DNA of 64,000 nucleotides from an uncultured Desulfobacterales bacterium (GTDB taxonomy: Bacteria > Desulfobacterota > DSM-4660 > Desulfatiglandales > HGW-15), in contig CAYVDE010000004.1 in assembly GCA_964450535.1 (NCBI GenBank), positions 9,083 to 73,082 on the forward strand, read 5' to 3'. The position numbers and the translations under genes were made by a program. Positions 5,769-40,413 of the stretch are shown one piece after another; the stretch's first letter is position 1, and each line of letters opens with the position of its first letter. The notes under the pieces were generated by a model. That model was given only the letters and a program-made list of their open reading frames with translations. It ran no database searches and was not told the DNA's origin.

Positions 5769-5784
5769 GAGATCTTGTAATCCC

Positions 5785-7170: not shown

Positions 7171-7180
7171 AAGGATCTCC

Positions 7181-7504: not shown

Positions 7505-7521
7505 GACAGGCCTCCTCAGCC

Positions 7522-8361: not shown

Positions 8362-8377
8362 TCAAGCCCTCCCATGG

Positions 8378-11319: not shown

Positions 11320-11348
11320 AATGAGCCTCGCCGCTGTACAGGTAAGGG

Positions 11349-18963: not shown

Positions 18964-18985
18964 TGAAAACTGAAAAGGAGTGAAC

Positions 18986-20230
18986 ATGGAGGAAAAACTG
19001 AGGCTGGAAGAATCGGAAAGGCTCTATCATGAGGCCCTCGACCTCGTTCCGGGTGCAATCCTGGGAATTAGAAGACCTTACAATTTTGTGCCCGGCGAGT
19101 ACCCCGTATTTTTCGAATCCGCAAAAGGGGGACGCGTCACGGACGTTGACGGCAATGAGTACATCGACATGCTCTGCGCCTACGGCCCCATCATCATCGG
19201 CCACAGGGAGGAGGAGATCGACAACGCCGTGATCGATCAGATGCGGAACAAAGGGTTCTGTTTTTCCCTGACACAACCCATGCAGAACAACCTGGCGCGG
19301 AAGATGCGCGAGTTGATACCGTCAGCGGAAATGAGCCTTTTTCTCAAGACAGGATCCGACGCGACGACCGCCGCAATCCGGATCGCCCGGGGGCACACGG
19401 AGCGGATGAAGATCGCTCGGTGCGGTTATCACGGGTGGCACGACTGGTGTGTTGAGGTCAAGGGAGGCATCCCTAAGAAGCTCTACGAGGATATCTACGA
19501 ATTTCACTATAATGAGTTGGATGAACTCGAAGACCTCATGAAGGTCCATGGGGACGACATGGCGGCGATAATAGTGACGCCTGTCGGGCACCCGCTGGCC
19601 GAGAAGGTGCAGGAACCGGAACCCGGGTTTCTTGAAGGAGTGAAGACCCTGGCCGAGAAGTACGGGGCGGTCCTGATCTTCGACGAGATTCGAAGCGGGT
19701 TTCGTTTCGGCCTGGGCGGGGCGCAAAAGGAGTACGGCATTACGCCCGACCTTTCCGTGTTCGGCAAGGCCATGGCCAACGGCTATCCTATAAGCGCCGT
19801 CGTGGGCCGAAGGGAGGTCATGATGGCGGCTGCGGACCGGGTTTTTATCAGCTCGACCTTTTTCCCCAACAGCCTGGAGCAGGTGGCCGCCATTAAGACC
19901 ATCGAGATCCTGGAACGGGACCGGATCCTTGAAAAGGTCTGGGAAAAGGGGCGGCGCTTAGGCGAGCAGATCGAACGTATAGTCAAGGACAGCGGGGTGC
20001 CGGTTGAGTTCTCCGGGGCCCCCCTGATGCCATTCATCACGTTCCCGAAAGACAAAGACGGAAGATACAAGCAGCTGAGGACCGAGTTCTACACCAGGGT
20101 CATCCGTCGAGGGGTGTTCCTGCAGCCCTATCACCACGGGTATGTGGCATACCGCCATAAGGATGAGGATCTTGATTATACGGCCTCGGTTATTCGAGAG
20201 TCCCTCGAAGAACTGAGGTCGCTGGCCTGA
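18986..20230 (+). CDS. Class III PLP-dependent aminotransferase/aminomutase (glutamate-1-semialdehyde 2,1-aminomutase-like)
   Basis: DEIRSGFR and the PLP-lysine block SVFGKAMANGYP are present, and the protein is collinear with the GSAM family. The ATG at 18986 is preceded by AAAGGAG. Confidence 0.85.
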   Translation: MEEKLRLEESERLYHEALDLVPGAILGIRRPYNFVPGEYPVFFESAKGGRVTDVDGNEYIDMLCAYGPIIIGHREEEIDNAVIDQMRNKGFCFSLTQPMQNNLARKMRELIPSAEMSLFLKTGSDATTAAIRIARGHTERMKIARCGYHGWHDWCVEVKGGIPKKLYEDIYEFHYNELDELEDLMKVHGDDMAAIIVTPVGHPLAEKVQEPEPGFLEGVKTLAEKYGAVLIFDEIRSGFRFGLGGAQKEYGITPDLSVFGKAMANGYPISAVVGRREVMMAAADRVFISSTFFPNSLEQVAAIKTIEILERDRILEKVWEKGRRLGEQIERIVKDSGVPVEFSGAPLMPFITFPKDKDGRYKQLRTEFYTRVIRRGVFLQPYHHGYVAYRHKDEDLDYTASVIRESLEELRSLA

Positions 20231-20357: not shown

Positions 20358-22808
20358 ATGCAAGACATCGCCTTTGAATCATCCGAGGAACAGGTCGAGG
20401 TGCCTGTGGCTGAACTCGTTGCGGAGGCCCTGGATTTCCTCAACAACTCAGCGGAAAGGCCTTTGGTGCCGGCTGAATTCATGGATCTTGTTGGAGACGG
20501 GGACGGTGGATCCAGGTTCAACCGGCTCCTTGAAGCCGCCGGCTTTGCAGATGACCCGGCCGGTTTCTTTGAATCCCTCATGAGAGCCGTAGCGCGGGGA
20601 GATGCCCGGGGCCGAGGGCCGTTTCAGATCAACGGAGTGGACATCCCCGGCCGGTTCATTGTGGCCCTCCTGGAGCGGACGGAGCCGGGGAATGAGTTCA
20701 TTTCCGTGCGGAATGTTGACCAACTGGAAGACATAGCCAAAATCCATATGGAAGAGGATAGGCGGGATGACATCCAGAAGGTCATAGACCTTTATCCTGT
20801 CAGGCTGTCAAGGCACACAGCCCGCCAGATGATGGTCTCGCGGGACGTGGCCTACCAGTACCTGCCTTTTGTGGAAGAGCTGGATCCTGTGGGACACGTG
20901 AACACCTGGATTGGACAGTTTCACCAGGGACTGCTGGAGCGGATGTATCGCAACCGCGTCATCTTTCTCCTGAACATGACTTGCCCGGTGTATTGCCGGT
21001 TCTGTTTCCGTAAGCACAAGGAGTCGCGAAATGAGACCTCCCCCACCCCGGATGAGGTCAGGGAAGCGGTGGCTTATGTAAATGCCTCGCCCACCATCAA
21101 GGAGATTGTAATCACAGGCGGGGACCCGTTTCTCAATAAAAAGAACATGGAGGTGGCAATCGATGGTCTCAGAGATGTCCCTCACGTCAAGACACTGCGG
21201 CTCGCCACCCGGTCCATTGCATACTACCCGCACCTTTTCCTTTCCAACGACGGTGCCTGGCTCAGCTACCTCAAGCGGAAGAACCTCGAGTTGGAGGAGA
21301 AAGGGAAGCGAATAGAGGTTGCCACCCACTTCATCCATCCGGATGAGGTGTCCCCGGACAGCCTGGAGATCATTTCCGAGCTGGTCCAAAGCGGCATACA
21401 GGTCTACGTGCAGACTCCCTTCCTCAATGACTGCAACGATCGGGGTCCCGAACTCGCTGAACTCTTCAGCAGCTTGAGGGGCGCCGGTGCCGAGATGCAC
21501 TATATCTACATTCCCTGCAGCCCGATTCACGGAAACAGCATTTACTGGGCCCCGCTTTCCAAGGGCATAGAGGCCGGCATTTACCTTAGAGCCCACGTTT
21601 CGGACCGGGCCATTCCAAGGATCTGCACGGCCACGCCCATCGGAAAAATGGACTGGAACAGCAGCGGCTGGGCCGTTGGGCGGGACCGGGAAAACGAGAA
21701 CTTCATATGGATCCGCTCCCCTTACACCCCGGACTACTTCAACGCCTTCGCCCCTGTTGCGAATGAACTGGAGAACGTCCGCGTCAACGACGAAGGGACC
21801 CTCGATGTAAAATACATGGCCCAGATAGGCGACGATGCGCTTTTCGCCGGTTCAAGGGTCCCGAGGCATCCTCTGAACGGAAAGACCGATCCCGGACTCC
21901 TGAATACCGTTCGCGCTGAGGGATTAAAGGACCAGCGATTCGCTCGTCCGGTTGTCTCTTCCGGTGTGCAAGGGGTTGTGCGGGTCCACGAGACACGGGC
22001 GGAGCTGGACATTGACCGCTTTAAGGCCGGAATAGATTATATTCGAAGGAACGGGCACATCACCGACGTGGTTGTTGCGGGGAAGCGGGACGGGATCGAC
22101 AGCTTGAGGGAGGTTCGGGATATTGTCAAGCACCTCCGCGACATTTCCCATGTCAATTCGGTCAGGCTTCGAAGCCTCGCATTCGCCGAAAACCCGAGTG
22201 CTTACACCCGCAGTGTTATCCGCGAACTGGCCGAACTGAACAGATTGACCGTGACAAGGCCCCTCCGGCTCGAGATCGAGACATTGTTTTTTCATGGCGA
22301 CGAATTTCTGGATGAGCACAAGAGGAAGGCCGCCCTGCTGCGAAGAAAAGGCATATCCGTTTACGTTAATACTCCGATTATTTCAGGAGGCAACGACAAT
22401 CCCGAAGAGATCCAGCGGGTGGCTTATTTGTGCAGGGATACAGGTCTTGAATTTCATCACGTTTACGCCTCCGGCCATCCCTTGCAGACGTCCCTGAACG
22501 ACGAGCGCCCCTTGGACGTGGACGATGTCCTGGATATTGCCACACTTGTCAGACGTGACGGCAGTGGCCGGGAGATACCGGCATACATACTGCAGACGGA
22601 GCTGGGCGAGGTGGACTTCGGCCTCTCATCCAGATTTGTTGAACGTGAAGGCGGGCTTTGGGCCCGGTTGCTCCCATATGACCTGGCCTACTTTCGGGCC
22701 ATGGACCCTGAATACAACTGGCCTGAAGGTGTGATAACAGACGAGAACGGCTGTCCGGTGGTTCCGGTGCCGGGTCTCGTTTCCAACACTGGGTTCATGG
22801 TGTCCTGA
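20358..22808 (+). CDS. KamA-family radical-SAM protein, 816 aa, with tandem KamA-fold modules (the second is degenerate)
   Basis: Module 1 has CPVYCRFC (Cys209/213/216, nt 20982-21005), ITGGDPF, HVKTLRLATRS, VATHFIHPDE, VQTPFLNDCND and TPIGK. Module 2 (from about nt 21970) repeats the same block order (ITDVVVAGKRDG, HVNSVRLRSLAF, LEIETLFFHGDE, VNTPIISGGNDN, ILQTELGEVDF). It has no Cys triad and no lysine at the PLP position. Confidence 0.8.
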   Translation: MQDIAFESSEEQVEVPVAELVAEALDFLNNSAERPLVPAEFMDLVGDGDGGSRFNRLLEAAGFADDPAGFFESLMRAVARGDARGRGPFQINGVDIPGRFIVALLERTEPGNEFISVRNVDQLEDIAKIHMEEDRRDDIQKVIDLYPVRLSRHTARQMMVSRDVAYQYLPFVEELDPVGHVNTWIGQFHQGLLERMYRNRVIFLLNMTCPVYCRFCFRKHKESRNETSPTPDEVREAVAYVNASPTIKEIVITGGDPFLNKKNMEVAIDGLRDVPHVKTLRLATRSIAYYPHLFLSNDGAWLSYLKRKNLELEEKGKRIEVATHFIHPDEVSPDSLEIISELVQSGIQVYVQTPFLNDCNDRGPELAELFSSLRGAGAEMHYIYIPCSPIHGNSIYWAPLSKGIEAGIYLRAHVSDRAIPRICTATPIGKMDWNSSGWAVGRDRENENFIWIRSPYTPDYFNAFAPVANELENVRVNDEGTLDVKYMAQIGDDALFAGSRVPRHPLNGKTDPGLLNTVRAEGLKDQRFARPVVSSGVQGVVRVHETRAELDIDRFKAGIDYIRRNGHITDVVVAGKRDGIDSLREVRDIVKHLRDISHVNSVRLRSLAFAENPSAYTRSVIRELAELNRLTVTRPLRLEIETLFFHGDEFLDEHKRKAALLRRKGISVYVNTPIISGGNDNPEEIQRVAYLCRDTGLEFHHVYASGHPLQTSLNDERPLDVDDVLDIATLVRRDGSGREIPAYILQTELGEVDFGLSSRFVEREGGLWARLLPYDLAYFRAMDPEYNWPEGVITDENGCPVVPVPGLVSNTGFMVS

Positions 22809-22965: not shown

Positions 22966-24009
22966 ATGATATCGAACTTCGGCCCTTTCCCGGCCCGCGA
23001 AGACGGGCTCATAACGGTGGACCTGCATGCCGCCGGGGAACCCCTGCGCCTTATGGTGGGCGGTCTGCCCGACATCCCCGGAGGCACCTTGCAGGAGAAG
23101 AGGCTCTACCTCCAGGAAAATCTGGACTGGGTCCGGCTGCTTCTCACCAGGGAGCCTCGAGGCCACCGGGACATGTTCGCGGCTGTGGCCACCGAGCCCG
23201 CCGGCCAAGAGGGGAGCTTCGGAGTCGTGTTCATGGATGCCAGGCGTTATCCCTACATGTGCGGCCATGGTATCATCGCCGCCGTCACGGCTTTCATTGA
23301 GCTGGGCTGGACCAAGCCGCCCGTGAACCCCCCGTTTCTTACGGTGGACACTCCAGCAGGGCCTGTTCGCGCCTTTCCCCGCGTCCTCCGGAATGGAGCG
23401 GGAACGGTTCGCGTGGAATCAGTGGCTGTGGAGCTGGGTCCGGCCTTCGTATTTCAGCAGGAGCAGAAACTTTACCTGCCCGATTATGGGAGCGTCATGG
23501 TTGACGTGGTCTTTGCAGGCGGGTTCTTCGTGCTGGCGTCTGTCGAGCAGCTTGGGTTGACGCTCTCTTACGATCGTTTGCAAGAACTGGCCCGGCTGGG
23601 GATGGCCGTGATCGAGGAAGGGAACCGTAGCCTTAGGGTCAGGCACCCGGTGCTCGATCACATCCGTACTGTTGACGTGGCCGCCTTCTACGATCCGGCC
23701 GGTCATGAGGAGCAGAGAGGTAAAGGATTCGTGGTACTGGGTGAGGGGCATGTTGACCGGTCACCTTGCGGCACCGGGACCTCGGCCAAGATGGCTCTGC
23801 TTCACCGGCAGGGGCTCCTGCCGACAGGGAGTGTGTTCGAGAACTCCGGGCTCACCGGCACGACATTTATGGGGCGGATCGTTCGCGAGACCGAAGTCGG
23901 GGGGATTCCAGCAGTGGTCCCTGAGATTCGGGGGTCGGCCTGGATTACTGGATTTCATCGGTTCGTGACGTCCCCGGACGATCCGTTTCCAGAGGGGTTT
24001 CTGGTATAA
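22966..24009 (+). CDS. Proline racemase superfamily enzyme (Cys/Cys type: proline racemase or 4-hydroxyproline 2-epimerase)
   Basis: The motifs DLHAAGEPLRLMVGG, YPYMCGHG and DRSPCGTGTSA are present. Both catalytic positions are Cys. Confidence 0.85.
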   Translation: MISNFGPFPAREDGLITVDLHAAGEPLRLMVGGLPDIPGGTLQEKRLYLQENLDWVRLLLTREPRGHRDMFAAVATEPAGQEGSFGVVFMDARRYPYMCGHGIIAAVTAFIELGWTKPPVNPPFLTVDTPAGPVRAFPRVLRNGAGTVRVESVAVELGPAFVFQQEQKLYLPDYGSVMVDVVFAGGFFVLASVEQLGLTLSYDRLQELARLGMAVIEEGNRSLRVRHPVLDHIRTVDVAAFYDPAGHEEQRGKGFVVLGEGHVDRSPCGTGTSAKMALLHRQGLLPTGSVFENSGLTGTTFMGRIVRETEVGGIPAVVPEIRGSAWITGFHRFVTSPDDPFPEGFLV

Positions 24010-24011
24010 AA

Positions 24012-25433
24012 ATGAATCTATTGCGTCCATTTCGACGACTTGATGACAGCGACTGCAGCAAGCTTCACGAGGCGTCTCTTCACATTCTGGAGAGGACCGG
24101 GGTCCGGCTTCATCACCCCCCGGCGGTCCGGCTGCTGGAGAAGGCCGGCGCGCGGATATCAGAAGGGAACCGCGCTCGCATCCCATCAGGCCTGGTGGAG
24201 CGGGCCCTTGAGACCGCCCCCTCTACGATCACTCTTTTCAATCGTCATGGTGAGCCGGCTGTTGAGGCAGGCGGCTGTCGTTCGTATTTCGGCACCGGAT
24301 CGGATTGCCTGAACGTGCTTGATCACCGGACCGGAGAACGCCGCCGGGCCCGAATAAAGGACGTAATAGAAGGTGTGACGCTCTGTGACGCGCTTGATAA
24401 CGTAGACTTCGTAATGAGCATGTTCCTTCCTTCTGATGTTCCCCGCATGACGGCGGACCGATTCGCCATGCAGGCCATGCTCGAGCATACGACCAAACCC
24501 CTGGTGTTTGTGACCACGGATCCGGCAGGGTGCGAGGACGCCGTGGCCATGGCTGAAGTCGTGGCAGGAGGAGAGGATGCACTGCGGGAAAGGCCTCTTG
24601 CAGCCTGCTACATCAACGTGACAAACGGGCTGCAGCACAACCGGGAGGCCCTGGAAAAGCTGATGTTCCTCTCCGGCAAAGGCCTTCCCGTGACATACGT
24701 GCCGGTTTCTCTGGGCGGTGCGAGCGCGCCCGTCACAGTGGCCGGCGGCATGGCGTTGTGGAACGCCGGTTGCCTGGCCGGTTTAGTGATCGGGCAGTTG
24801 AACCGGCCCGGGTCCCCCTTCATCACGTCCGGGTGGGGAGCCAGCGCCCTTGACATGCGGACAGGTCTCAGCCCGTATGTGGAGCCTGAAAAGCAGTTCA
24901 TAGCCCAGGAACTGGCCCACTTCTACGGCCTTCCAATGTTCGCGTTCGGCGGCATTTCGGACTCCAAGCAGGTGGACGCGCAGGCGGGTGCCGAGGCTGC
25001 CCTCACTCTCCTTGCGAACGCCCAGGCCGGGAGTCACCTGGTGCACGACATGGGGTATCTCGAGTCTGGTCTCACCGGATCTCAGGCCCAGCTGGTGTTA
25101 TGTGATGAGTTGGTGGGGTGGGTACGCACGGCACTGTCCCCTTTGGAGATCACCGAAGAGACCCTGGCGCTGGATGTGATCGATGAGATCGGACCCGACG
25201 GGCAGTATCTTGACAGCCTGCACACCCTTCATCACTACCGGGACCGCTGGTATCCCGAGGTCATGGACCGGTCCGGGCATGAATCCTGGGTCGCCCGGGG
25301 CGGCAAGGACCTGGGCCGAAGGGCCGCGGAGCGTGTGGAGGCCCTCCTGGCGGAACACAGACCGGAACCCCTTCCGGACCAAGCCGCAGAACACATACAA
25401 GCCATTGTCGATCGCGCGGCAAAGAGATCTTAG
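24012..25433 (+). CDS. MttB-superfamily protein (trimethylamine methyltransferase family, non-pyrrolysine type)
   Basis: This is an uninterrupted 473-aa ORF with a family-typical N-terminus (LHEASLHILERTGVRLHHPPAVRLLEKAGARI) and typical length. It starts 2 nt after the upstream racemase gene. Confidence 0.75.
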   Translation: MNLLRPFRRLDDSDCSKLHEASLHILERTGVRLHHPPAVRLLEKAGARISEGNRARIPSGLVERALETAPSTITLFNRHGEPAVEAGGCRSYFGTGSDCLNVLDHRTGERRRARIKDVIEGVTLCDALDNVDFVMSMFLPSDVPRMTADRFAMQAMLEHTTKPLVFVTTDPAGCEDAVAMAEVVAGGEDALRERPLAACYINVTNGLQHNREALEKLMFLSGKGLPVTYVPVSLGGASAPVTVAGGMALWNAGCLAGLVIGQLNRPGSPFITSGWGASALDMRTGLSPYVEPEKQFIAQELAHFYGLPMFAFGGISDSKQVDAQAGAEAALTLLANAQAGSHLVHDMGYLESGLTGSQAQLVLCDELVGWVRTALSPLEITEETLALDVIDEIGPDGQYLDSLHTLHHYRDRWYPEVMDRSGHESWVARGGKDLGRRAAERVEALLAEHRPEPLPDQAAEHIQAIVDRAAKRS

Positions 25434-27052
25434 CGGCTGAACACCACCCGCCCGTCGAAGATGGTCATGTCCACGGAGGTCTCGATGATCTCCATGGGGT
25501 CCACGGAGAAGATGTCCCTGTCCAGGACGACCATGTCCGCCCGTTTTCCGGGTGAAATTGTTCCCAGTTCACCTGTAACGCCGTTCGCCTCCGCCGGTGC
25601 CAGGGTATAGCCGCGGACCGCTTCCTCCACGCTTATCCTTTCACGGGGGTACCATCCCCCTTCGGGGGAGCCGTCCCGCCGTTGACGGGTGACGGCCGCG
25701 TGGATGCCCACGAGCGGTCGCGGATCACAGACCGGCGAATCAGAGCTTAGCATGAGCGGAATACCGGCATCCAGCATGCTCCGATACGCGTAGGTCCATT
25801 GTCCCATTTCTCCTACGCAACTATCTATCATGTGGATGTCCAGAATCAAGTTATGTGGCTGCACACAACCCACCAGGTTTAGACGCGCCATGCGGTAAAG
25901 GTCCTCAGGCCGAATCATCTGTAGGTGCTCGATTCGGTGTGGGACGGCGGGGCGTGATGCGGGATCAATATCCTCAAAGGCTTTATCCCGTTTCACCGCC
26001 TCGAAAACTGAAATCAATTCCCGGTTGGCCCGGTCTCCTATTGCGTGAACCATGACGGCGAGCCCGGCCCGGTTCGCTTTAGTGATCCGTTCACGTAAGG
26101 CTTCCGGCGGGTAGAGGCTCATGCCCACACCACCATCCAGGTATGGGTCGATCATCCATGCGGTGCGCGCCCCCATTCCGCCGTCCATGAAGTATTTGAG
26201 GTGTCCCAACCTGAGTCTATCGTCTCCTAAGCCTGTGCGGATACCCAGGGCTTCCGCCTCATCCAGGCGTTCACCAGGAAGGCTCACCCAGCACCGCAGG
26301 TCCAGCTTTCCTTGCTCCCTGATCTGCTGCCAGGCGCGAAGGACGGGCGGCCCTTCCAGTCCTCCCATGAGCCGGACGTCGAATATCCCGGTCAACCCAT
26401 AGGAGTGGACTTCGGGAATGCCGTCCAGCATGGCCTCGTATACCCCGGCGGTGCCTGCCCTGTCTATGGCCGCCTTGATCAGGTTGGGAGCCAACTCACG
26501 GAGGATGCCGGTGGCACTTCCCGAGGTGTCCCTTGCAATGACGCCGGCGGGCGGGTCGGGCGTGCTGTCGTCGATGCCGGCCTCCTTCAGAGCGACTGAG
26601 TTGACCGTGGCCAGGTGAAGGTCACATCGCCAGAGCGCCACGGGGTGATCCGGCGCTACTCGGTCCAGGTCATGGCGTTCGGGCATGTGTTCGACTTCCC
26701 AGTCCGACTCGTTCCAGCCCTGTCCCACGATCCAGGCTCCCTGTGGAAGGTTGCGGGCGGCCTCCGCTACACGGTTTAAGAGGTCCTCCAGCGAGACCGT
26801 GTCGGCCAGGTTGAGCTGCTTCCGTCCCATGGACCAATCATAATAGTGGAAGTGGCTGTCCGTGAAGCCGGGCAGGACAAGCCTTCCTTCTAAGTCCTGG
26901 GTCTTGGTTCCGGATCGGGAGAGCGACGCTATTTCAGAGTTATCTCCTACGGCCAGGATCCGGCCGTTGCCCATGGCCACTGCCTGGGCCAGGGGGCGGG
27001 AAGGGTCCATGGTTCGAATGACTGCGTTTTGGAAGATGCGTTCCGGTTTCAT
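25430..27052 (-). CDS. Amidohydrolase (amidohydrolase-3 / YtcJ-like metal-dependent hydrolase)
   Basis: The N-terminal metal motif PGFTDSHFHY is present. It is 540 aa long with family-typical architecture. Confidence 0.8.
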   Translation of the reverse strand: MKPERIFQNAVIRTMDPSRPLAQAVAMGNGRILAVGDNSEIASLSRSGTKTQDLEGRLVLPGFTDSHFHYYDWSMGRKQLNLADTVSLEDLLNRVAEAARNLPQGAWIVGQGWNESDWEVEHMPERHDLDRVAPDHPVALWRCDLHLATVNSVALKEAGIDDSTPDPPAGVIARDTSGSATGILRELAPNLIKAAIDRAGTAGVYEAMLDGIPEVHSYGLTGIFDVRLMGGLEGPPVLRAWQQIREQGKLDLRCWVSLPGERLDEAEALGIRTGLGDDRLRLGHLKYFMDGGMGARTAWMIDPYLDGGVGMSLYPPEALRERITKANRAGLAVMVHAIGDRANRELISVFEAVKRDKAFEDIDPASRPAVPHRIEHLQMIRPEDLYRMARLNLVGCVQPHNLILDIHMIDSCVGEMGQWTYAYRSMLDAGIPLMLSSDSPVCDPRPLVGIHAAVTRQRRDGSPEGGWYPRERISVEEAVRGYTLAPAEANGVTGELGTISPGKRADMVVLDRDIFSVDPMEIIETSVDMTIFDGRVVFSR

Positions 27053-28086
27053 GGAAGAAAGCCTCCGGGAAAGGGATCGTCGGGTTCGATGTAAAAGGAG
27101 TGTAGGCCTGTTATGTGTGCGCTTCCACGGATTTCGATCACCACAGCAGGCACACCTCCTACATCTGTTTCAGTGACAATGCGCGCCTTGAACACTGTCC
27201 CGAGCGGGCTCGTGTTTTCGTAGATCCGGTCGATCCCGATTTTACCCCGCTGGTATAAAAGCGTCAGCTTGGCAGCCGTACCCGTCCCGCAAGGTGACCT
27301 GTCCATATGTCGTTCGCCGTATATCACCATGCTTTTCCCGCAAAGTGGACGCTCTGAATCTTCCTCGTAGAACTCCACCACATCCACCGTTGATACCTCA
27401 GGCCGCGTCGGATGGTGAACCTCCAGTTGTTGATCGGCGCTTTCAATGATAGTCATGCCCAGGTCTACGAGCCGCCTCGTGTTTTCCGGGGTGAGTGAAA
27501 GGCCTGTTCGTCGGATCGGGACCATCACGAAAAATCCACCCACGCAGACCGTGTCCACTTCTATACTCCCGAGACCCGGTACATCCAGAGTTTGGTCCAG
27601 GCCGTAAACGAATGACGGCACAGCCTGAATGGCAACCGACTCCACTTGCCCTTCACGGATACGAGCAAGGGCATCCATCGGACCGGAGGGAGTGTCTATG
27701 GTAATCGCGGTTTCGGGATCGCGCCGGTCGATGACCTCCGTGTCGAGAAGAGTGGTGACCGCGCCGATGGTGGCGTGCCCGCAGAGATACGGATAGCGCC
27801 GGGCGTCCATGTATATGAGACCGAAGGACGCCCCATCGGTCACCGGGTCTGTGATGGCGGCGGCTATCATGTCCCGGTGCCCTCTTGGTTCCCGCGTGAG
27901 CAGGAGACGCACATGGTCCAGGTTTTCCATGAAGTAGCGTCGTTTCTCCGCCATTGTGGAACCGGGTACTTCGCCGAATCCGCCCACAATAAGCCGGGTC
28001 GGTTCACCGGCGGTGTGGGAGTCAATGGTCACAAAAGGTTCGGGGAACCTTCGGGCCAGGGTCAGCCTTGCGCGATTGATATCCAT
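27049..28086 (-). CDS. Proline racemase superfamily enzyme (Cys/Cys type), paralog of 22966-24009
   Basis: The motifs DSHTAGEPTRLIVGG, YPYLCGHA and DRSPCGTGTAA are present. The shared block LLLTREPRGHRDM and the C-terminus DDPFPxGFL match the paralog. Confidence 0.85.
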   Translation of the reverse strand: MDINRARLTLARRFPEPFVTIDSHTAGEPTRLIVGGFGEVPGSTMAEKRRYFMENLDHVRLLLTREPRGHRDMIAAAITDPVTDGASFGLIYMDARRYPYLCGHATIGAVTTLLDTEVIDRRDPETAITIDTPSGPMDALARIREGQVESVAIQAVPSFVYGLDQTLDVPGLGSIEVDTVCVGGFFVMVPIRRTGLSLTPENTRRLVDLGMTIIESADQQLEVHHPTRPEVSTVDVVEFYEEDSERPLCGKSMVIYGERHMDRSPCGTGTAAKLTLLYQRGKIGIDRIYENTSPLGTVFKARIVTETDVGGVPAVVIEIRGSAHITGLHSFYIEPDDPFPGGFLP

Positions 28087-28293
28087 GCATTGAACCTTCC
28101 GGGGCCGCCTGCCCGGCTTTTAGGCGGCAAAAGCGGGTTGCAGTGACAAACGTCTATAAAAACCGGCTTCATATGTCGAGAGAATATGCCTTTCCGAAGG
28201 GCATTATGGGCGGTCATGGTCCATACGGTTTGGGACCCCCGGGAAGGAATGTGCTGCCTCAAAGAGAGGAGACGCGGGGATGTCGCGGGCTAA

Positions 28294-29406
28294 TTACCTT
28301 GTGGCGTTATCTCGGTGCAAAAGACCGCAGTCAATGGGAGGCGCGTGAATCAGGACGGAATCGCCCCGGCGGAACGGCTTGGAGCTGATTATGCTGATGG
28401 CGTGAAGTACGGTCCCGTTTTCAAGTTCCACGAAGTAGCTTACTTCACCCCCCATGTAACTGCGATCTTTGATTATGGCCTTGAAAGAGTTGATTTCAGG
28501 GGCCGAAGCGCCCTCCTTGTCCGGAAGGATGTCGAATTTCTGGGCGCGTATGACCAGTTCTACGGGCTCCCCCTGTTTCCACTCTTCAAGGTTAAGGGTG
28601 TAGAACTCGTTGCCGTCCTGGACTCGTACCTTGATGTAGTCCCCGTCGCGGCCCAGCACCTCGCCGTCCATGAAGTTGGAGTGTCCCAGAAAATCGGCTA
28701 CAAAGTGGTTCACCGGCTTGTTGTATACCTCCTCGGGATTCCCTTCCTGCTGCTTTCGCCCGTCCTTCATGACCACGATCTTATCGGACATGGACAGGGC
28801 CTCGCGCTGGTCATGCGTCACAAAGATGGTAGTCACGCCGAGTAACTGCTGTAGATTGTCCACCTCACGGCGCATCTCCTCACGAAGGTTCTCGTCCAGC
28901 GCGGAAAGCGGTTCGTCCATGAGCAGGACCACAGGCTCGATGACAATGGCGCGGGCCAGGGCTATCCGCTGCTGCTGACCTCCTGAAAGCTGGGAAGGCA
29001 TCCGGTTTTCCACGCCGGGCAGCCGCACCATTTCCAGGGCGCGCTGAACACGTTCCCGGGTCTCCTGCTTGGGTACGTTACGGTACTTGAGGCCGAACGC
29101 CACATTCTCGAAAATGTTCTTGTGGGGAAAAAGCGCGTAGTTCTGGAATATCATCCCCAGGTTCCGCTTGTGGATGGGGGTGTCGTTCACACGCTTTCCC
29201 TTTATGAAGATATCCCCTTCGGTCGGTGTCTCCAGCCCGGCGATCATACGCAGGATGGTGGTCTTGCCGCAGCCCGAAGGCCCGAGGAGTGTGACGAGTG
29301 ATCCCTCCTCGAACTCGAGGTTCATCCGCTCCACCGCCACAACCTTGTCGAAACGCTTGTAGACCCCCTTGAGCTCAACCGCTAGGGACTTGCCTTGGTT
29401 ATTCAC
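28294..29406 (-). CDS. ABC transporter ATP-binding protein (PotA-like, with a C-terminal TOBE-like domain)
   Basis: Walker A (GPSGCGKTT), signature (LSGGQQQR) and Walker B (LLMDEPLSALD) are present. The start is GTG, preceded by AGGAGAG. Confidence 0.9.
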   Translation of the reverse strand: MNNQGKSLAVELKGVYKRFDKVVAVERMNLEFEEGSLVTLLGPSGCGKTTILRMIAGLETPTEGDIFIKGKRVNDTPIHKRNLGMIFQNYALFPHKNIFENVAFGLKYRNVPKQETRERVQRALEMVRLPGVENRMPSQLSGGQQQRIALARAIVIEPVVLLMDEPLSALDENLREEMRREVDNLQQLLGVTTIFVTHDQREALSMSDKIVVMKDGRKQQEGNPEEVYNKPVNHFVADFLGHSNFMDGEVLGRDGDYIKVRVQDGNEFYTLNLEEWKQGEPVELVIRAQKFDILPDKEGASAPEINSFKAIIKDRSYMGGEVSYFVELENGTVLHAISIISSKPFRRGDSVLIHAPPIDCGLLHRDNATR

Positions 29407-29535
29407 CTCTCACCGCTCTCCTGATCGGCGTTGGTCGGGAGTGCCGTCCCGATCCGCCGGTAGGGAAGGGGACGGCACAGGTTTCACGAACTGTCCAGGC
29501 TATGCCGTAAGGCCCTGCCTGGACAGTTCCTTATA

Positions 29536-30696
29536 TCAGCCTACTCTGATCCGGTCCCATTTCTCCGTCCACTCGAGCTCGTGCTTGTTCCAGTATTCGG
29601 GTTTGGCGAACAGGTAGCCCTCGAGCGTGCCTGTGGGATCAAAGGCAGGCATCTTCTGTACCTCAGGGGGCATCTCCACTTTGGTGGGGTCCAGGCTCGG
29701 CGGGTAGCCCTGGGCCTTGGCAACAGCGATGGCCGCCTCGGGTTCCAGCATGAAGTTGAGCAGCTTCTGGGCCACTTCCAGGTCTGTTCCCTTGAGCACG
29801 AACATGTACTCCATCCAGGAATAGGTGCCCTTGGGGGACAGGTAGCCTATGGGGTGGCCTTCCTGCTGCAGCGCGCCGACGCGGCCGGACCAGGCCACCG
29901 TGGCATAGATCTCATCGCCGGCCAGAAGGCTCATGAGTTCGGCGCCGGATTCCCAGTACTTTTTCATCAGCCCCCGCTGTTCCGTCAGTGCGTCCCACAC
30001 CGCGTCTAGGTCGGTGATGTTGTTGGGGCTCTGTCCCGTGTGAAGGGCCGCATACCACATGTTGGTCCTGTAATCCGCCCCCCAGCTTCCCAGCTTACCT
30101 TTGAGGTCCTTGTCCCAGAGCAGAGCCACTCCCAGTTTCTCGGCCTTTTCCTTTGAGATGTGCTTGGTGTTGTAAGCTATTCCGGTCTGGCCCAGGTCGT
30201 AGGGAACGGCTGAAAGCTTGCCGTCGCTCAGCCCACGGAGGGCGTTTATCATGGGTAGCATAACCTTCTCAAGGTTGGGGATCTTGGCCTCATCAAGGAC
30301 AACCCCGAAACCCAGGCCCATGTACCGGGCATAGTCGAACACTGCGCTCAGGTGGGCTATGTTGAACTCACCACCCGGCGGGTAGGAGGCCTTGACCTGG
30401 GTCAGAAAGGCGTCCATGCCCGTAAAGGCTGCGTCGACCACCTCGATACCGGTTTCCTTGGTAAAGGGCTCGAATGCATACTTGCGAAGGGCCTCCGAAG
30501 TGGTGCCGCCCCAGGAATCCACCCGGATTGACTTGGAGGCACGAGCGCTGCGGGTCAGCATGCCGAACGGTCCTCCCACCAGCCCGGCCGCGGCCCCGGC
30601 GATACCGAGGTACTTGATGAAGTCGCGGCGGGTGATCTCGCCGTCCCTGTAAAGCGCTGCCACGGTTTCCAGTTGTTCGTTCAAATCCCTGCTCAT
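29536..30696 (-). CDS. ABC substrate-binding protein (PotD/PotF-type) with a Tat signal
   Basis: A twin-arginine signal (ITRRDFIKYLGIAGAAAGL) is present, and the length and composition resemble SBP_bac_8. GGGAGG precedes the ATG. Confidence 0.8.
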   Translation of the reverse strand: MSRDLNEQLETVAALYRDGEITRRDFIKYLGIAGAAAGLVGGPFGMLTRSARASKSIRVDSWGGTTSEALRKYAFEPFTKETGIEVVDAAFTGMDAFLTQVKASYPPGGEFNIAHLSAVFDYARYMGLGFGVVLDEAKIPNLEKVMLPMINALRGLSDGKLSAVPYDLGQTGIAYNTKHISKEKAEKLGVALLWDKDLKGKLGSWGADYRTNMWYAALHTGQSPNNITDLDAVWDALTEQRGLMKKYWESGAELMSLLAGDEIYATVAWSGRVGALQQEGHPIGYLSPKGTYSWMEYMFVLKGTDLEVAQKLLNFMLEPEAAIAVAKAQGYPPSLDPTKVEMPPEVQKMPAFDPTGTLEGYLFAKPEYWNKHELEWTEKWDRIRVG

Positions 30697-30813
30697 GGCT
30701 TACCTCCCTTTCATACAGTAAAGTTGGCGATCGACAGGAGTTATGCGCCCACCGGTTCTCCGGCACCGGATAGCCTCCGTACGGCGTGTGTCCTGTCAGG
30801 GTTAATGTATCAA

Positions 30814-31605
30814 CTATTTTCCCCTGGCGAAGCGACGAGAGAGGTACCCCGCGAGCAGGGGTGTTGAGATTGTCAATATAATCATTACGGTCCCCAGGGC
30901 GTTGATCTCAGGGCTTATAGAGGTGCGCAGCATGCTGAAGATCTTTACCGGGACCGTCTGATTCTGGGCCGTGGCCCAAAAAAGTGTGGCCGTTACGTCA
31001 TCGAATGAGATGGTGAAAGAAAACAGCATCCCCGCCAGTATGGCAGGCATAAGCAGCGGCAGCGTGATCTCTTTGAAGGCCTGGAAGGGGTTTGCGCCGA
31101 GGCTCATGGCGGCCTCCTCATAAACGCGCTTTATGCCCACCAGCCTGGCCTGAACCACCAGCAGGACATAGGGCAGGGTGAGGACCACGTGTCCGATGAG
31201 CAGCAACGCAAAGCTCTTGGGCTGCTGGAGCCACCGGATGAACAGTAGGAGGGCCACGCCCAGCACCACCTCCGGGATCATGATCGGGGCCAGGAGCAAG
31301 GTGTTCAGGCTGTTCTTGCCGGGAAACTCGTAACGCACAAAGGCCATTGCCGCAGGAATCGCAATGGTGGTGGTCATTACGGCCGTCAGAGACCCCAAGA
31401 CGAGGCTGTTCTTGAAGGCGTTTATAATGGTCTCGTTCTGGGCGAGCTTGATGTACCATCGGAGGCTGAGTCCCTCCATGGGGAAGGACCCGAACTGCTG
31501 CGGGTTGAAAGACAGTATGACCACCGCCACAATGGGGGCGAACATCCAGATGTAGACCATGATCGTGAAGAGGCGTATCAGTGACCAGCCCGTTATTCTT
31601 GGCAT
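30814..31605 (-). CDS. ABC transporter permease (PotC-like)
   Basis: It is a multi-TM protein with the EAA loop EEAAMSLGANPFQAFKEITLP. Confidence 0.85.
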   Translation of the reverse strand: MPRITGWSLIRLFTIMVYIWMFAPIVAVVILSFNPQQFGSFPMEGLSLRWYIKLAQNETIINAFKNSLVLGSLTAVMTTTIAIPAAMAFVRYEFPGKNSLNTLLLAPIMIPEVVLGVALLLFIRWLQQPKSFALLLIGHVVLTLPYVLLVVQARLVGIKRVYEEAAMSLGANPFQAFKEITLPLLMPAILAGMLFSFTISFDDVTATLFWATAQNQTVPVKIFSMLRTSISPEINALGTVMIILTISTPLLAGYLSRRFARGK

Positions 31606-31615
31606 TGTGAATAAC

Positions 31616-32476
31616 TCACTGCAGGCTCTTGAAGATCTGGTTGATCCCCAGGTAGCGGTTATAGGTGTACACGATTACGCCCAGCAGTGCCAGGAGGATC
31701 GTGCTGATGGCCGAACCAAAGGGCCAGTCAAGGGTCCCTACGACCCGTTTGAAGATCAGGTTGGCGATCATGTCGTTCCCCGGACCTCCCAGAATCATGG
31801 GTGGAAGGTATGTGCCGGATGTCAGGACAAAGACCAGGAGGCAGCCTGCGCTCACCCCCGGGAGGCTGAGGGGCAGGGTGACCTCGCGGAACGCCTGCCA
31901 CTCCGTGCATCCAAGGCTTCTCGCCGCCTCGAGTAGGTTCTTGTCTATCCCTTCCAGGCTCACATAGATGTTGAGGATCATGAACGGGAGCAGGTACTGA
32001 ATCAGGCCCATCAGAACTGCACCCTCATTGTAGAGCATGGCCAGGGGCCTGTCCATGAATCCGATTCGCATGAGAACGTGGTTGATCAGGCCGGTGTCAC
32101 CCAGGATGTTGATCCAGCTCAGGGTACGGATGATGAAGCTGATCCAGAAGGGAAGCATCACCAGGATCAGTAGAAACGGTTTGTACCTGCTCTCCGTTCG
32201 GTAGAAGAAGTACGCGGGGATGTACCCCATGACCAGGCAGAGAACGACCGTCTCGAGGGACACGCGTATGGTTCGAATCAAGAGGGAGGGGTAAAAAAAA
32301 TCTTCGAAGAACTTGGCGTAGTTCCCGAACTGAAACGCCGGAATGTCAGCCCCGCTCGGCGCCCTGAGCCAGAAGCTGTAGACCACTATGAAGCAGACAG
32401 GAATCACAAGCAGGAAAAAGATGGCACTCAGGGCAGGAGAAAGAAGAGCGGCGGGTTTCCAGAGCTTGTTTTCCAT
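31616..32476 (-). CDS. ABC transporter permease (PotB-like)
   Basis: It has the EAA loop EAARSLGCTEWQAFREVTLP. I chose the start at MENKLWKPAALLSPAL (ATG at 32476) instead of the track start at 32632. Confidence 0.85.
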   Translation of the reverse strand: MENKLWKPAALLSPALSAIFFLLVIPVCFIVVYSFWLRAPSGADIPAFQFGNYAKFFEDFFYPSLLIRTIRVSLETVVLCLVMGYIPAYFFYRTESRYKPFLLILVMLPFWISFIIRTLSWINILGDTGLINHVLMRIGFMDRPLAMLYNEGAVLMGLIQYLLPFMILNIYVSLEGIDKNLLEAARSLGCTEWQAFREVTLPLSLPGVSAGCLLVFVLTSGTYLPPMILGGPGNDMIANLIFKRVVGTLDWPFGSAISTILLALLGVIVYTYNRYLGINQIFKSLQ

Positions 32477-32808: not shown

Positions 32809-34620
32809 CTACCTTCCCAGAATCCGCTTCCCCAGAGCTGAGTAAATGAATCGCCGGAGTTTTTCCCTGTCCCTTCGCCCCGGCGGCTTGGTCCCTGAAA
32901 TATCGAGAGTTCGGAGAAGGCCGGAAGCGGCGATCATTTCCATTGCATGGTGGCTTTCCCTGTTTGTAAGGCCGTCCCTGCCGTTGTCGGCGGCCGCCGG
33001 GTTGAAGCGGACGTAAACGCCCCGGTTCCCGGAAGCCGCCCTGCGTAAGGCCCGGCGGGTCACCTCCCGGATACCCAGGAGATCCACATCCTCCATAGTG
33101 TACGATTCTATTCTGAACCTGCGGATGATTTCCGCGTCCTTTTCCTCCGCGTCCCGCAGGCAGAGAAATATCAGGCTTTCCGGTGAAACGCGTGCGAACG
33201 GCTTATGTTCTGATGGTTCCGATGAAGCCGTCGTGCTCGAGGGAGGGGCCAGGTCCTCCCGGCCCAAAAGGTCGAATGGAAAGTCGGGGAAGGGGCTGAT
33301 CCAGATCATCCCCGGCGGGTCGCCTGCAGCGGCCATGGCTGCATACAGGGGTTTTGTAAGAGGTTCGGTGCCGCCGGCGATTATGCAGTCCTTGTCCGGC
33401 CGCAACTCGGGTATTTCCGGTTTGAGCGCTTTAATAAAAATTCGTTCCGCGTAGCCGAGCTTCTCCAGTTCGTTCCACTTTTCCTGATTCCTGAACAGAG
33501 GATCGTCCCCCAGAAAAACGATGCGCACCCCGTGGGGGGAAAAGCGGTCGCCACCAACAGGGCGCTTTTCCACATACGACGAGGTCATGGCCGATAGAAG
33601 AGCCGAGTAGGAGAGGTTGAAGGTAATGACGTCTCCCAGATCCAGCTCTCCCGGATATTCAGTCACATCGAGGATCAGGTGGTCACTCGAGGCGCCCAGA
33701 ACGGAAATCCCCGGCTCCGCCGGTTCGAGCCCGCTTACATCCACATCTTCCCGCCCGATATTGAGAATCGCCCGGAGCATCTCCCCTTTGTCAGAAAATT
33801 CGGGTGTTCCGCCGAATGCGTCCTGGCCTGTCTCGCCGATCGGCATCGACGGTTTCCTTTTCAGTTCGATGACTTCCCCGGAGAGGAGAAACGCATCCTG
33901 GACCGTTCCCGGCCAGCATGTCCTGTTGATGGTCTCACGCCCCAGAAGGATGGCCTCGCCTATCCGGAGATGATTTATTTCCGGGGGCATTCTTCCGGAA
34001 GCAAGAAGCGGCAGGGATGAGGAGTTTCCGCCTGAAATAGTTTCGATCGGGATTCCGAACGTGTCCTCTATCCTGCGGGCCCAGTCGACCAGTTCCTGCA
34101 TGTTTTTTCGCGTCGGAATTACCCCGCCGTAACAGGTGAGGTTCGTGCCGATTCCCTGGATCCTGACGCCGGGAAGGTCGATGATCTCACGCACGGCCGC
34201 CATCAGGTCATCGGGCCAGAAACCTTCCCTCAGGTCCCCCAGGTCCAGCATCAGGATGATCCTGTGAATGATGCCGCGTTCTTCCGCCGCCTGGGAGAGG
34301 GCCCGGATAGCCGGGAGTTCCGAATTGAGGCTCACGTCAACCGAATTGACGATCTCTTCGGCCGCGGATACAGGCGGAATACGCAGAAGCATGATCGGCT
34401 CCAGAATTCCTCCCGCCCGGAGCCGGTGGATGTTTTCCATCCTGGATTCCCCGATCCCCGAGACTCCGCCCATGATCAGCGCTTTCGCGACTTGCGGCAT
34501 GCCGCAAGTCACTTTGGTCACGCCGGTTACCGTGACTCCATAACCAGCGCAGAGATTAGTGACCGCACGTGCGTTCGAGATAATTTTTTCAAGATCGATG
34601 GTCACGGCCGGTCCGGACAT
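32809..34620 (-). CDS. orr: Ornithine/alanine racemase-fold PLP enzyme fused to a degenerate arginase-fold C-terminal domain
   Basis: The N-terminal ~355 aa is an alanine-racemase-fold protein (VTGVTKVTCG lysine block). It sits in the position that orr occupies in the conserved ornithine cluster. The C-terminal ~245 aa is collinear with arginase/agmatinase blocks, but the Mn-ligand residues are replaced. Confidence 0.75.
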   Translation of the reverse strand: MSGPAVTIDLEKIISNARAVTNLCAGYGVTVTGVTKVTCGMPQVAKALIMGGVSGIGESRMENIHRLRAGGILEPIMLLRIPPVSAAEEIVNSVDVSLNSELPAIRALSQAAEERGIIHRIILMLDLGDLREGFWPDDLMAAVREIIDLPGVRIQGIGTNLTCYGGVIPTRKNMQELVDWARRIEDTFGIPIETISGGNSSSLPLLASGRMPPEINHLRIGEAILLGRETINRTCWPGTVQDAFLLSGEVIELKRKPSMPIGETGQDAFGGTPEFSDKGEMLRAILNIGREDVDVSGLEPAEPGISVLGASSDHLILDVTEYPGELDLGDVITFNLSYSALLSAMTSSYVEKRPVGGDRFSPHGVRIVFLGDDPLFRNQEKWNELEKLGYAERIFIKALKPEIPELRPDKDCIIAGGTEPLTKPLYAAMAAAGDPPGMIWISPFPDFPFDLLGREDLAPPSSTTASSEPSEHKPFARVSPESLIFLCLRDAEEKDAEIIRRFRIESYTMEDVDLLGIREVTRRALRRAASGNRGVYVRFNPAAADNGRDGLTNRESHHAMEMIAASGLLRTLDISGTKPPGRRDREKLRRFIYSALGKRILGR

Positions 34621-40402: not shown

Positions 40403-40413
40403 TTTCAGGCCTC

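Follow-up and report, generated by a model that had tools for sequence, protein, structure and literature searches.

A candidate two-module gene cluster with proline-racemase-like proteins, an MttB-family protein and a YtcJ-like amidohydrolase in an uncultured Desulfobacterales bacterium, and its possible link to lysine fermentation

Introduction

Characterised non-pyrrolysine members of the MttB superfamily demethylate quaternary amines including proline betaine (PMC13080624), and the closest described systems are MtpB-MtqC-MtqA from Eubacterium limosum and MtgB from Desulfitobacterium hafniense. An aerobic pathway for (hydroxy)proline betaine has been described from Paracoccus and Pelagibaca, where the epimerase HpbD acts together with the demethylases HpbB/C and HpbA (PMC3950512; PMC4113996). 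Here we describe a gene cluster that resembles both in part and that lies in a stretch of 64,000 nucleotides (nt) from an uncultured Desulfobacterales bacterium (contig CAYVDE010000004.1 of assembly GCA_964450535.1, positions 9,083 to 73,082; in the following the window). It encodes two proline-racemase-superfamily (PRS) proteins, PRS1 and PRS2, an MttB-family protein, a YtcJ-like amidohydrolase and an ATP-binding cassette (ABC) importer with a substrate-binding protein (SBP) exported by twin-arginine translocation (Tat; Table 1). All of the proteins belong to known superfamilies, and their combination is taken to be a previously undescribed, substrate-specific uptake and catabolism cluster. 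An earlier note on this DNA knew of no described pathway with these genes, and our literature search is in agreement, as no paper was found in the library searched that describes the combination or joins an MttB protein with a proline racemase (one co-mention was unrelated).

Like MtpB and MtgB, the MttB of the window is a non-pyrrolysine TIM-barrel protein of an anaerobe, and its relatives at 55–61% identity likewise adjoin a DxHxxG corrinoid protein and a pterin-binding methyltransferase. Its motifs, with Ile at the pyrrolysine (Pyl) position, are closer to those of the trimethylamine enzyme than to those of MtpB or MtgB, and whereas the described systems contain no PRS protein, the window MttB is paired with one and has no corrinoid protein, methyl acceptor enzyme or activase nearby. 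The Hpb pathway has a comparable logic, in that a proline derivative is imported, 2-epimerised and then N-demethylated, but it relies on an epimerase of the enolase superfamily and on Rieske and flavin oxygenases as demethylases, has other importers and needs oxygen; it also includes neither an amidohydrolase nor a radical S-adenosylmethionine (SAM) enzyme, both of which are present in the window cluster. The PRS proteins have the PF05544 fold, the two catalytic Cys and the imino-nitrogen Asp and His in common with proline racemase (ProR) of Stickland fermentation and with 4-hydroxyproline 2-epimerase, but the latter have D-proline reductase or hydroxyproline oxidation genes as neighbours and not an amidohydrolase or MttB. 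The amidohydrolase can be aligned over its full length with the epsilon-lysine acylases SmELA and SgELA (EC 3.5.1.17), which are also YtcJ-like, of similar length and with metal ligands at the same positions; these are actinomycete enzymes studied for fatty-acyl-lysine synthesis, for which a PRS partner or transporter context is unreported. AblA/AblB, which make N-epsilon-acetyl-beta-lysine in methanogens, come to mind because a KamA-family radical-SAM protein stands beside an AblB equivalog in two related loci (L092 and L093), but this AblB partner is twice the canonical length, has a degenerate second half and is without the two lysine-binding Asp, and the window itself has no AblB. As in lysine fermenters, a canonical KamA is present and heads the gene row of the window. 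Finally, the importer has the same four-component architecture and families as PotABCD, from which it differs in the low PotD score of its SBP (see below) and in Tat export.

Results and Discussion

Two modules in one cluster

Gene families were assigned from a listing of open reading frames (ORFs) together with Pfam and NCBIfam profile searches, and the locus was compared with two samples of related loci. The MttB-centred sample comprised 79 loci from a genome collection plus look-ups, and its clade with MttB proteins at least 64% identical includes 21 other loci. The amidohydrolase-centred sample comprised 80 loci from a metagenome collection plus look-ups, 26 of which encode homologues at least 46% identical. 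In the MttB-centred sample a PRS gene is located directly beside MttB at 13 of the 21 loci and the amidohydrolase is present at seven. Starting from the amidohydrolase, a PRS gene lies directly upstream in 13 of 26 loci, a Pot-type importer is found in 11 (permeases 77–93% identical) and the long radical-SAM gene in seven, while MttB occurs in only three, which makes it an accessory, dispensable to the core. The loci with recurring adjacency come from Desulfobacterales, Anaerolineae, Ca. Vecturithrix and others, and further recurring partners are class I/II or III aminotransferases, IclR- or sigma-54-type regulators and aldehyde:ferredoxin oxidoreductase.

The PRS tree shows two sister clades. 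Members of the PRS1 type are invariably encoded directly upstream of MttB and those of the PRS2 type invariably directly upstream of the amidohydrolase, often overlapping with it. Two modules that recur separately can be told apart: a core of an importer (Pot- or Liv-type), a PRS2-type protein and the YtcJ-like amidohydrolase, seen at 13 of the 26 amidohydrolase-centred loci, and an accessory pair of a PRS1-type protein with MttB, seen at 13 of the 21 MttB-centred loci. With two PRS clades in the tree, the mirror-image PRS pair of the window can be understood as a juxtaposition of the two modules. Of the gene order described in the earlier note, the PRS–MttB, PRS–amidohydrolase and importer adjacencies are conserved in relatives; the mirror-image pair is specific to the lineage of the window, as the other loci extending far enough to judge have a single PRS gene. 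In Anaerolineae the genes for a single importer and a single PRS protein stand in one row with those for MttB and the amidohydrolase. The closest longer relative (L003/L004) carries a class-III aminotransferase gene in place of PRS1 upstream of MttB and an IS200/IS605-type Y1 transposase gene between MttB and the amidohydrolase (L003, 11421–12437; L004, 7522–8538).

Proline-racemase-superfamily proteins

All eight genes and their families agree with what the earlier note had read from the sequence, and the same holds for the spacing of 2 nt between PRS1 and MttB, the 4-nt overlap of PRS2 and the amidohydrolase, the Cys/Cys type and paralogy of the two PRS proteins and the Tat signal of the SBP. 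Both PRS proteins match PF05544 over 324 of 325 model positions and are 50% identical to each other, with the strings LLLTREPRGHRDM and DDPFPxGFL in common. They show Cys at both catalytic positions, as do racemases and epimerases of the superfamily in contrast to its Cys/Thr dehydratases, within Y[ML]CGH (MCGH in PRS1, LCGH in PRS2) and DRSPCGTG, and CGH and SPCGTG are kept in both window proteins and in 25 of 25 aligned orthologues. Their best matches among models and solved structures are of the ProR type (nearest structures of PRS2 with E 4e-83). Against the ProR equivalog NF010576 PRS1 reaches 340.9 bits and the other PRS 346.8 bits, both below the cutoff of 556, and the scores remain under every NCBIfam equivalog cutoff.

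Differences become visible in the substrate pocket. The segment RYP[YF][ML]CGH is present in all members of both PRS clades (RYPY[ML]CGH in the PRS1 clade), where ProR has GYLNMCGH. Asp296 and His132, which hold the imino nitrogen, are conserved in both clades. Of the ProR pocket contacts, which in TcPRAC are Phe102, Leu127 and Phe290, Leu127 is replaced by Pro in both PRS proteins and Phe102 by Ile in PRS2, and at the position of Phe290 PRS1 has Leu and PRS2 has Tyr; per clade, one of the two ring-stacking Phe is replaced. This altered pocket suggests an imino acid other than plain proline as substrate, for example one with a bigger ring or with ring substituents.

A third PRS group, closer to ProR, adjoins an MttB gene pair in Chloroflexi (L023, L029, L068, L082), and in L082 PRS and MttB are found together with a corrinoid protein and a methyl-tetrahydrofolate (THF) methyltransferase. 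According to the tree, the PRS–MttB adjacency arose in two separate PRS lineages. The independent association in Chloroflexi lends independent support to the idea that MttB and PRS enzymes share substrates, and the recurring adjacency favours an N-methyl imino acid. D-proline reductase (Prd families) was found neither in the window nor in the Pfam-annotated neighbourhoods of related loci, and a study of PRS genome neighbourhoods yielded nothing on an amidohydrolase or aminomutase neighbourhood.

MttB-family protein

The MttB ORF is uninterrupted and matches PF06253 over model positions 28–495 of 500, with Ile315 aligned to Pyl334 of trimethylamine MttB. Against the model of the latter, TIGR02369, it scores 372.5 bits and stays below the cutoff of 525. 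In MtgB glycine betaine is bound by Y97, R312, H348 and F356, and R312, which pairs with the acid group of the substrate, is kept in the characterised members MtpB, MtcB, MtyB and MthB (PMC13080624). The window MttB has S97, F310, H345 and G353 at these positions, only the His being kept. Phe310 is invariant among 26 clade members, the position is aromatic in 29 of 29 aligned relatives, and the loss of the Arg is common to the whole Desulfobacterales/Chloroflexi MttB superclade. The Phe in place of Arg argues against a classical alpha-betaine such as proline or hydroxyproline betaine, and judged by its active site the protein probably acts on a substrate class different from the known alpha- or omega-betaines.

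In a neighbour-joining tree the window MttB is part of a monophyletic clade that holds all PRS1/PRS2- and amidohydrolase-linked members. At the 21 other loci of the clade no corrinoid protein or methyl-THF methyltransferase is encoded at a distance of up to 10 kb, and when the 64-kb window was searched with both proteins from sister loci, the sole match was the B12 domain of KamE. The sister MttBs at 55–61% identity carry the same active-site motifs as the window protein and are usually encoded between the DxHxxG corrinoid protein and the pterin-binding methyltransferase or in paralogue arrays; about half of the sister-clade loci include such partners. Classical corrinoid partners do accompany some proteins of the superclade, and the methyltransferase chemistry has therefore probably been kept.

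Relatives of the MttB query are widespread, being encoded in 444 matching stretches in a scan of the species-level genome collection. Around a related MttB a second conserved cluster is seen in Desulfobacterales (L037, L038, L043, L045, L047, L050, L059, L062 and L064, at about 4000–12500 in each), with the order distant MttB-like, asparagine-synthetase-like, metallo-beta-lactamase-fold, distant MttB-like, corrinoid protein, MttB, methyl-THF methyltransferase, CN-hydrolase and MarR. Anaerolineae (L024, L026, L030, L032, L046, L048, L054 and others) have arrays of three to six MttB paralogues, which are 30–62% identical to the window MttB, all lack the substrate-binding Arg of MtgB and are accompanied by a Dpp-type ABC importer, a CBS-domain protein, a pyridoxal-phosphate (PLP) enzyme of Cys/Met metabolism and a family of 262 amino acids (aa). 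In L006 and L007 a gene with a homocysteine S-methyltransferase domain (PF02574; 11508–12386) follows an MttB of the clade without nearby corrinoid partner. In L088 MttB is followed by a UbiE-type methyltransferase gene and preceded by the genes for 2-oxoacid dehydrogenase E1 alpha and beta; in L011 and L016 the same positions are taken by ORFs that correspond in size. The methyltransferase genes behind MttB in L006, L007 and L088 may point to alternative methyl acceptors.

YtcJ-like amidohydrolase

The metal-ligand set of the amidohydrolase is complete and invariant, consisting of HxH (H67, H69), K286, H336, H372/H376 and D438. With SgELA it shares 26% identity over 515 aa (E 2e-32) with the metal ligands in register, and the epsilon-lysine acylases are the sole characterised YtcJ-like enzymes that we found (PMC10699109). 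The best matches in the PDB (3icj, 3igh) are uncharacterised entries. More distant homologues with 36–44% identity were discarded as a source of functional context, because their conserved neighbours are the origin-proximal housekeeping genes YidC, Jag, ParA and ParB, which reflects lineage synteny and says nothing on function.

Radical-SAM protein and the lysine link

Partners that do not appear in the earlier note, namely a long KamA-family radical-SAM protein, AblB-type acetyltransferases, aminotransferases and lysine-fermentation genes, indicate a connection to lysine or beta-lysine. The flanking canonical KamA scores 599.8 bits against TIGR03820 (cutoff 525), matches KamA from C. subterminale with E 2e-164 and keeps D293 and D330, which bind the epsilon-ammonium group of lysine in structure 2A5H. 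Apart from this flanking KamA, no protein of the cluster reaches a curated equivalog threshold. The long radical-SAM protein (816–825 aa) is encoded in 10 of 24 core loci and is seen in the window, L003, L005, L009, L092, L093, L096, L103, L105 and L111. Its active-looking first half retains CPVYCRFC, the equivalent of the carboxylate-binding Arg134 and PIGK across 10 orthologues, with a 2-residue gap needed to align the probable PLP Lys. In 10 of 10 orthologues Ser and Ala take the places of D293 and D330, which the canonical KamA neighbours keep. The second half appears to be a KamA-like, degenerate copy without cysteines or cluster. We therefore consider that the protein may be an aminomutase for an N-acylated substrate, and in L092 and L093 it neighbours an AblB equivalog, in the place of canonical AblA.

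The class-III aminotransferase encoded between KamA and the long radical-SAM protein is probably part of the unit. It is closest to the glutamate-1-semialdehyde aminomutase type, with a best NCBIfam match of 285 bits that is below the cutoff, and an orthologue with 82% identity is present in L003 and L004. An identity of the aminotransferases as guanitoxin enzymes was dismissed, the GntE and GntC matches being weak, all below cutoff and a matter of family-level similarity.

Canonical KamA (with D293 and D330) or KamDE is encoded within 10 kb at six of the 24 core loci (the window, L003, L089, L094, L113 and L119), and four further core loci (L092, L093, L101, L103) have an AblB-like GNAT next to or near the radical-SAM gene. 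Those of L092 and L093 score as equivalogs of the beta-lysine acetyltransferase AblB with 306–316 bits (cutoff 205), and those of L101 and L103 are 41–42% identical to them. The loci come from different phyla and have different importers. With KamA-, KamDE- and AblB-type genes occurring about once per genome, their repeated presence here is very unlikely to be due to chance. Combined with the homology of the amidohydrolase to epsilon-lysine acylases, this neighbourhood points to lysine or beta-lysine as the most likely hydrolysis product.

Importer

All components of the importer score below the Pot equivalog cutoffs (bits/cutoff: PotA 376/482, PotD 60/582, PotC 210/326, PotB 203/348). The SBP carries the twin-arginine motif TRRDFIK (TIGR01409, 27.3 bits with a cutoff of 16.7), and its PDB neighbours bind putrescine or spermidine and also gamma-aminobutyrate, mannopine and agropine. 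Orthologues in related loci are 65–80% identical for the ATPase and 78–87% for the PotC-like permease. Across the loci the importers are PotABCD-like or LivJ-like and never OpuAC/ProX-like, with the Pot type in Desulfobacterales and Ca. Vecturithrix and a GntR regulator together with a Liv-type ABC importer in Anaerolineae. Pot-type and Liv-type SBPs each match structures that bind many different ligands, and the replacement of the whole importer by a Liv-type system in Anaerolineae makes a plain polyamine ligand unlikely. The membrane components of the Pot-type importer are unusually strongly conserved, the permeases of L005, L006, L092–L105 and L111 being 77–93% identical where PRS and amidohydrolase show only 50–65%.

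Proposed function and alternatives

In the best-supported, though tentative, model, which we regard as possible and no firmer than that, the two modules would serve the import of an amide-linked, proline-like imino-acid compound and its N-methyl form, with hydrolysis delivering lysine or beta-lysine for fermentation. The sequences show the family memberships, the intact catalytic residues, the conserved gene adjacency, the clades of PRS and MttB and the active-site substitutions, whereas the nature of the substrate, the order of the steps, the lysine product and the dependence on a corrinoid protein are inferred. The Tat-SBP importer would take up a small cationic or zwitterionic nitrogen compound with a proline-like cyclic imino-acid centre and a hydrolysable C–N (amide or amidine) bond. 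PRS2 would invert its C-alpha by a two-cysteine mechanism, and the binuclear-metal amidohydrolase would cut the C–N bond in the way epsilon-lysine acylases cleave N-epsilon-acyl-lysine, the freed amine, most likely lysine or beta-lysine, entering the adjacent lysine fermentation pathway (KamA, KamDE, Kdd, Kce). PRS1 and MttB would deal with the same imino acid in its N-methylated state: PRS1 would epimerise it, and MttB would hand its methyl group on to a corrinoid protein whose gene lies elsewhere in the genome. The long radical-SAM protein could shift the alpha-amino group of an intermediate with a neutral, for example N-acylated, side chain, as suggested by the loss of the two Asp that hold the free epsilon-ammonium, and the class-III aminotransferase could act on the same kind of intermediate. 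Glycine betaine, carnitine, trimethyllysine, cyanophycin dipeptides, diaminopimelate, opines, creatinine, 5-oxoproline and lysine or ornithine lactams were considered as substrates and rejected, as each leaves the PRS or the amide step unexplained.

Several points weigh against this model. We know of no natural compound that fits every feature, and to our knowledge pyrrolysine is the sole natural lysine amide with a proline-like ring. No locus of the MttB clade has a corrinoid partner close by; the clade may rely on a different acceptor or serve a different purpose. Since true proline racemases are the closest match of the PRS proteins, PRS2 might simply racemise free proline. The identity of 26% to SgELA shows that the amidohydrolase belongs to the same family and does not transfer specificity. 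L089 and L113 carry MttB with only a PRS2-type protein, whereas the split into modules predicts that MttB needs PRS1. Moreover, the lysine genes may be neighbours merely because amino-acid fermentation genes tend to cluster.

The earlier note had placed the cluster in the catabolism of a modified proline such as proline or hydroxyproline betaine. In this reading the imported betaine would be epimerised at C2 by PRS and demethylated by MttB, with a corrinoid protein receiving the methyl group, and hydrolysis would come in as a further step. A modified, N-methylated imino acid does fit the PRS–MttB adjacency in two PRS lineages, one of them once with corrinoid protein and methyl-THF methyltransferase (L082), the characterised MttB proteins include a proline betaine demethylase, and the single row of importer, PRS, MttB and amidohydrolase in Anaerolineae would suit one substrate that needs all three steps. 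The betaine itself is disfavoured by the Phe at the position of the Arg shared by MtgB, MtpB, MtcB, MtyB and MthB, with two of the other three binding residues also changed, by importers of the Pot or Liv type instead of OpuAC, ProX or BCCT, by the lack of MttB in most core loci and by the corrinoid partner that was found neither in the window nor within 10 kb of the 21 clade loci; furthermore, betaine breakdown gives no role to the amidohydrolase, the KamA-like aminomutase and the AblB homologue. We therefore regard proline betaine as an unlikely substrate. A different solute is suggested by the lysine genes. N-epsilon-acetyl-beta-lysine is the main compatible solute of methanogens, and it or N-epsilon-acetyl-lysine could be imported, interconverted between the acetylated beta and alpha forms by the radical-SAM protein, deacetylated by the amidohydrolase and fermented as lysine or beta-lysine, with AblB-type genes, where present, making the same solute and PRS and MttB serving another one. 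An AblB equivalog encoded right next to the long radical-SAM protein without a canonical AblA beside it, the loss of both epsilon-ammonium-binding Asp, the homology to epsilon-lysine acylases, the adjacent KamA or KamDE, a polyamine-type SBP suited to a cationic amine and the anoxic, methanogen-rich habitats (judged from contig titles) would all fit. However, no role is left for MttB or for PRS2, whose gene is linked to that of the amidohydrolase more closely than any other (13 of 26 loci, often overlapping), AblB is present in only four of 24 core loci, and no radical-SAM step would be needed if beta-lysine were formed by direct deacetylation; we consider this reading doubtful.

If free proline were the substrate of the PRS proteins after all, cationic proline dipeptides (Lys-Pro, Arg-Pro, Pro-Lys and others) could feed a Stickland-type fermentation, in which the amidohydrolase would be a prolidase or prolinase, Lys, Arg and Orn would enter the flanking oxidative pathways, the PRS proteins would supply D-proline to a reductase encoded elsewhere and MttB would add proline from N-methylproline. 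The PRS proteins do score best against ProR models and structures, amidohydrolase-superfamily prolidases exist and are family neighbours of the window enzyme (PMC10699109), which shows a weak N-terminal match to an Xaa-Pro dipeptidase model, and the window is rich in ornithine and lysine fermentation genes, including an ornithine-racemase/arginase-like fusion. The changed ProR pocket residues and the missed ProR cutoff, two distinct PRS clades that would be redundant for free proline, the lack of a D-proline reductase gene in any annotated neighbourhood, the many hosts that are Desulfobacterales of the sulfate-reducer type and the unusual choice of a Pot-type system as peptide importer make this decidedly unlikely. 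Very improbable in our view is the breakdown of an ectoine-like cyclic amidine, where PRS would epimerise the ring alpha-carbon, a cyclic amidohydrolase would open the ring to an N-acetyl-diamino acid, and the radical-SAM protein and the aminotransferase would process the latter. A metal centre with a conserved Lys is of the type seen in cyclic amidohydrolases, a ring amidine beside a carboxylate is chemically proline-like and a neutral N-acetylated side chain would fit the radical-SAM active site, but the lysine genes and MttB stay unexplained, known ectoine binding proteins come from other families and natural ectoine requires no epimerisation. The literature search did not support it either, as nothing was found on anaerobic ectoine degradation; on the breakdown of acetyl-beta-lysine, the solute of the reading above, the search likewise gave nothing. 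That the genes are unrelated neighbours without a common pathway has a negligible probability. Promoter and terminator scans gave counts no higher than the shuffled expectation and operon structure is not shown directly, but the same adjacencies recur in different orders and with different importers across phyla, and start and stop codons overlap or abut by 2–4 nt; the conservation data effectively refute this reading.

Going beyond the two-module model, one could imagine a pathway shared by Desulfobacterales, Anaerolineae and others in anoxic sediments for an as yet unnamed class of lysine-linked or lysine-derived cyclic imino acids and their N-methyl forms, carried out by novel enzyme branches. 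The compounds could be of the pipecolate type or pyrrolysine-kind N-epsilon-(imino-acyl)-lysines from methanogen biomass, and the enzymes would comprise two new PRS subfamilies, an amidase of the YtcJ type, a novel 2,3-aminomutase for N-acyl-amino acids, and the MttB clade without Arg, which would act on a new class of substrates or pass the methyl group to a new acceptor. We regard this as a speculative and improbable extension. Nevertheless, four families with large uncharacterised branches (PRS, MttB, YtcJ-like amidohydrolases and KamA-like radical-SAM proteins) gain a shared context. The annotation of the Arg-less MttB superclade in metagenomes as 'betaine or TMA (trimethylamine) demethylases' may be wrong, as the residue that recognises acidic quaternary amines is missing. 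For enzymology, the cluster is a source of candidate proteins, namely PRS proteins that may have a new specificity and an aminomutase that may accept a substrate with neutral side chain. If the lysine link is true, common anaerobes of sediments and digesters would scavenge a nitrogen-rich solute, possibly derived from methanogens, into lysine fermentation.

Layout and genomic surroundings

Table 1. Features of the cluster and of the gene row upstream of it (positions in the window).
Feature	Position	Strand	Family matches and remarks
KamA/AblA, canonical lysine 2,3-aminomutase	17704-18963	+	TIGR03820; first of plus-strand gene row
Class-III aminotransferase	18980-20230	+	PF00202; between KamA and long radical-SAM gene
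Long KamA-family radical-SAM protein	20358-22808	+	816 aa; KamA-family matches at residues 116-434
PRS1	22966-24009	+	Pro_racemase PF05544, E 5e-95, 318.7 bits
MttB	24012-25433	+	MTTB PF06253, E 3e-94, 316.4 bits
Amidohydrolase	25430-27052	-	Amidohydro_3 PF07969, E 1e-107, 361.7 bits; YtcJ-like, metallo-type, cytoplasmic
PRS2	27049-28086	-	Pro_racemase PF05544, E 9e-102, 340.9 bits; translationally coupled to the amidohydrolase
ABC ATPase, PotA-like	28294-29406	-	ABC_tran PF00005, TOBE_2 PF08402
SBP, PotD/PotF family	29536-30696	-	SBP_bac_8, Tat signal; Tat-exported
ABC permease, PotC-like	30814-31605	-	BPD_transp_1 PF00528
ABC permease, PotB-like	31616-32476 (open frame to GTG at 32632)	-	BPD_transp_1 PF00528

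The convergent stop codons of MttB and the amidohydrolase overlap by 4 nt (25430–25433), which leaves no space for a terminator between the two modules. For the last permease we prefer the ATG at 32476, the end coordinate given in the earlier note, over the GTG at 32632 as start, because the resulting product of 286 aa matches the length of its orthologues (276–289 aa). By eye, a hairpin at 32580–32563 and a TTGACT-17-TATATG box can be seen 5' of this permease, hints only of a separate transcription unit.

The cluster is flanked by ornithine and lysine fermentation operons, showing that the host is an anaerobic amino-acid fermenter, in line with the anaerobic setting assumed in the earlier note. 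Exact matches to the sequences were confined to metagenome assemblies, two short Logan contigs among them. The closest named relatives are Desulfobacterales and Deltaproteobacteria metagenome-assembled genomes with 83–86% identity. Downstream on the minus strand the D-ornithine genes encode an ornithine racemase/arginase-family fusion, a MutL-like reactivase, OraE, OrtB and 2,4-diaminopentanoate dehydrogenase, and the lysine genes KamD, KamE, Kce, KamB and Kdd are located beyond them. The fusion protein of 603 aa at the end of the D-ornithine operon (32809–34620, minus strand) consists of an N-terminal ornithine racemase, just below the cutoff of the Orr model (436.8 bits, cutoff 480), and a weak arginase-family domain in its C-terminal part, and it might couple arginine or agmatine-type hydrolysis with ornithine racemisation. 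The expected small subunits OraS and OrtA are absent among the annotated ORFs of this operon and may be located in a 390-nt gap 5' of OraE (38281–38670) or in an overlapping ORF of 203 aa near Ord (40097–40708). Further along, the G+C content dips to 0.446 at 54001–56000, compared with 0.55–0.62 elsewhere in the window, which may mark foreign DNA; an ORF of 307 aa at 54294–55217 is without a Pfam match.

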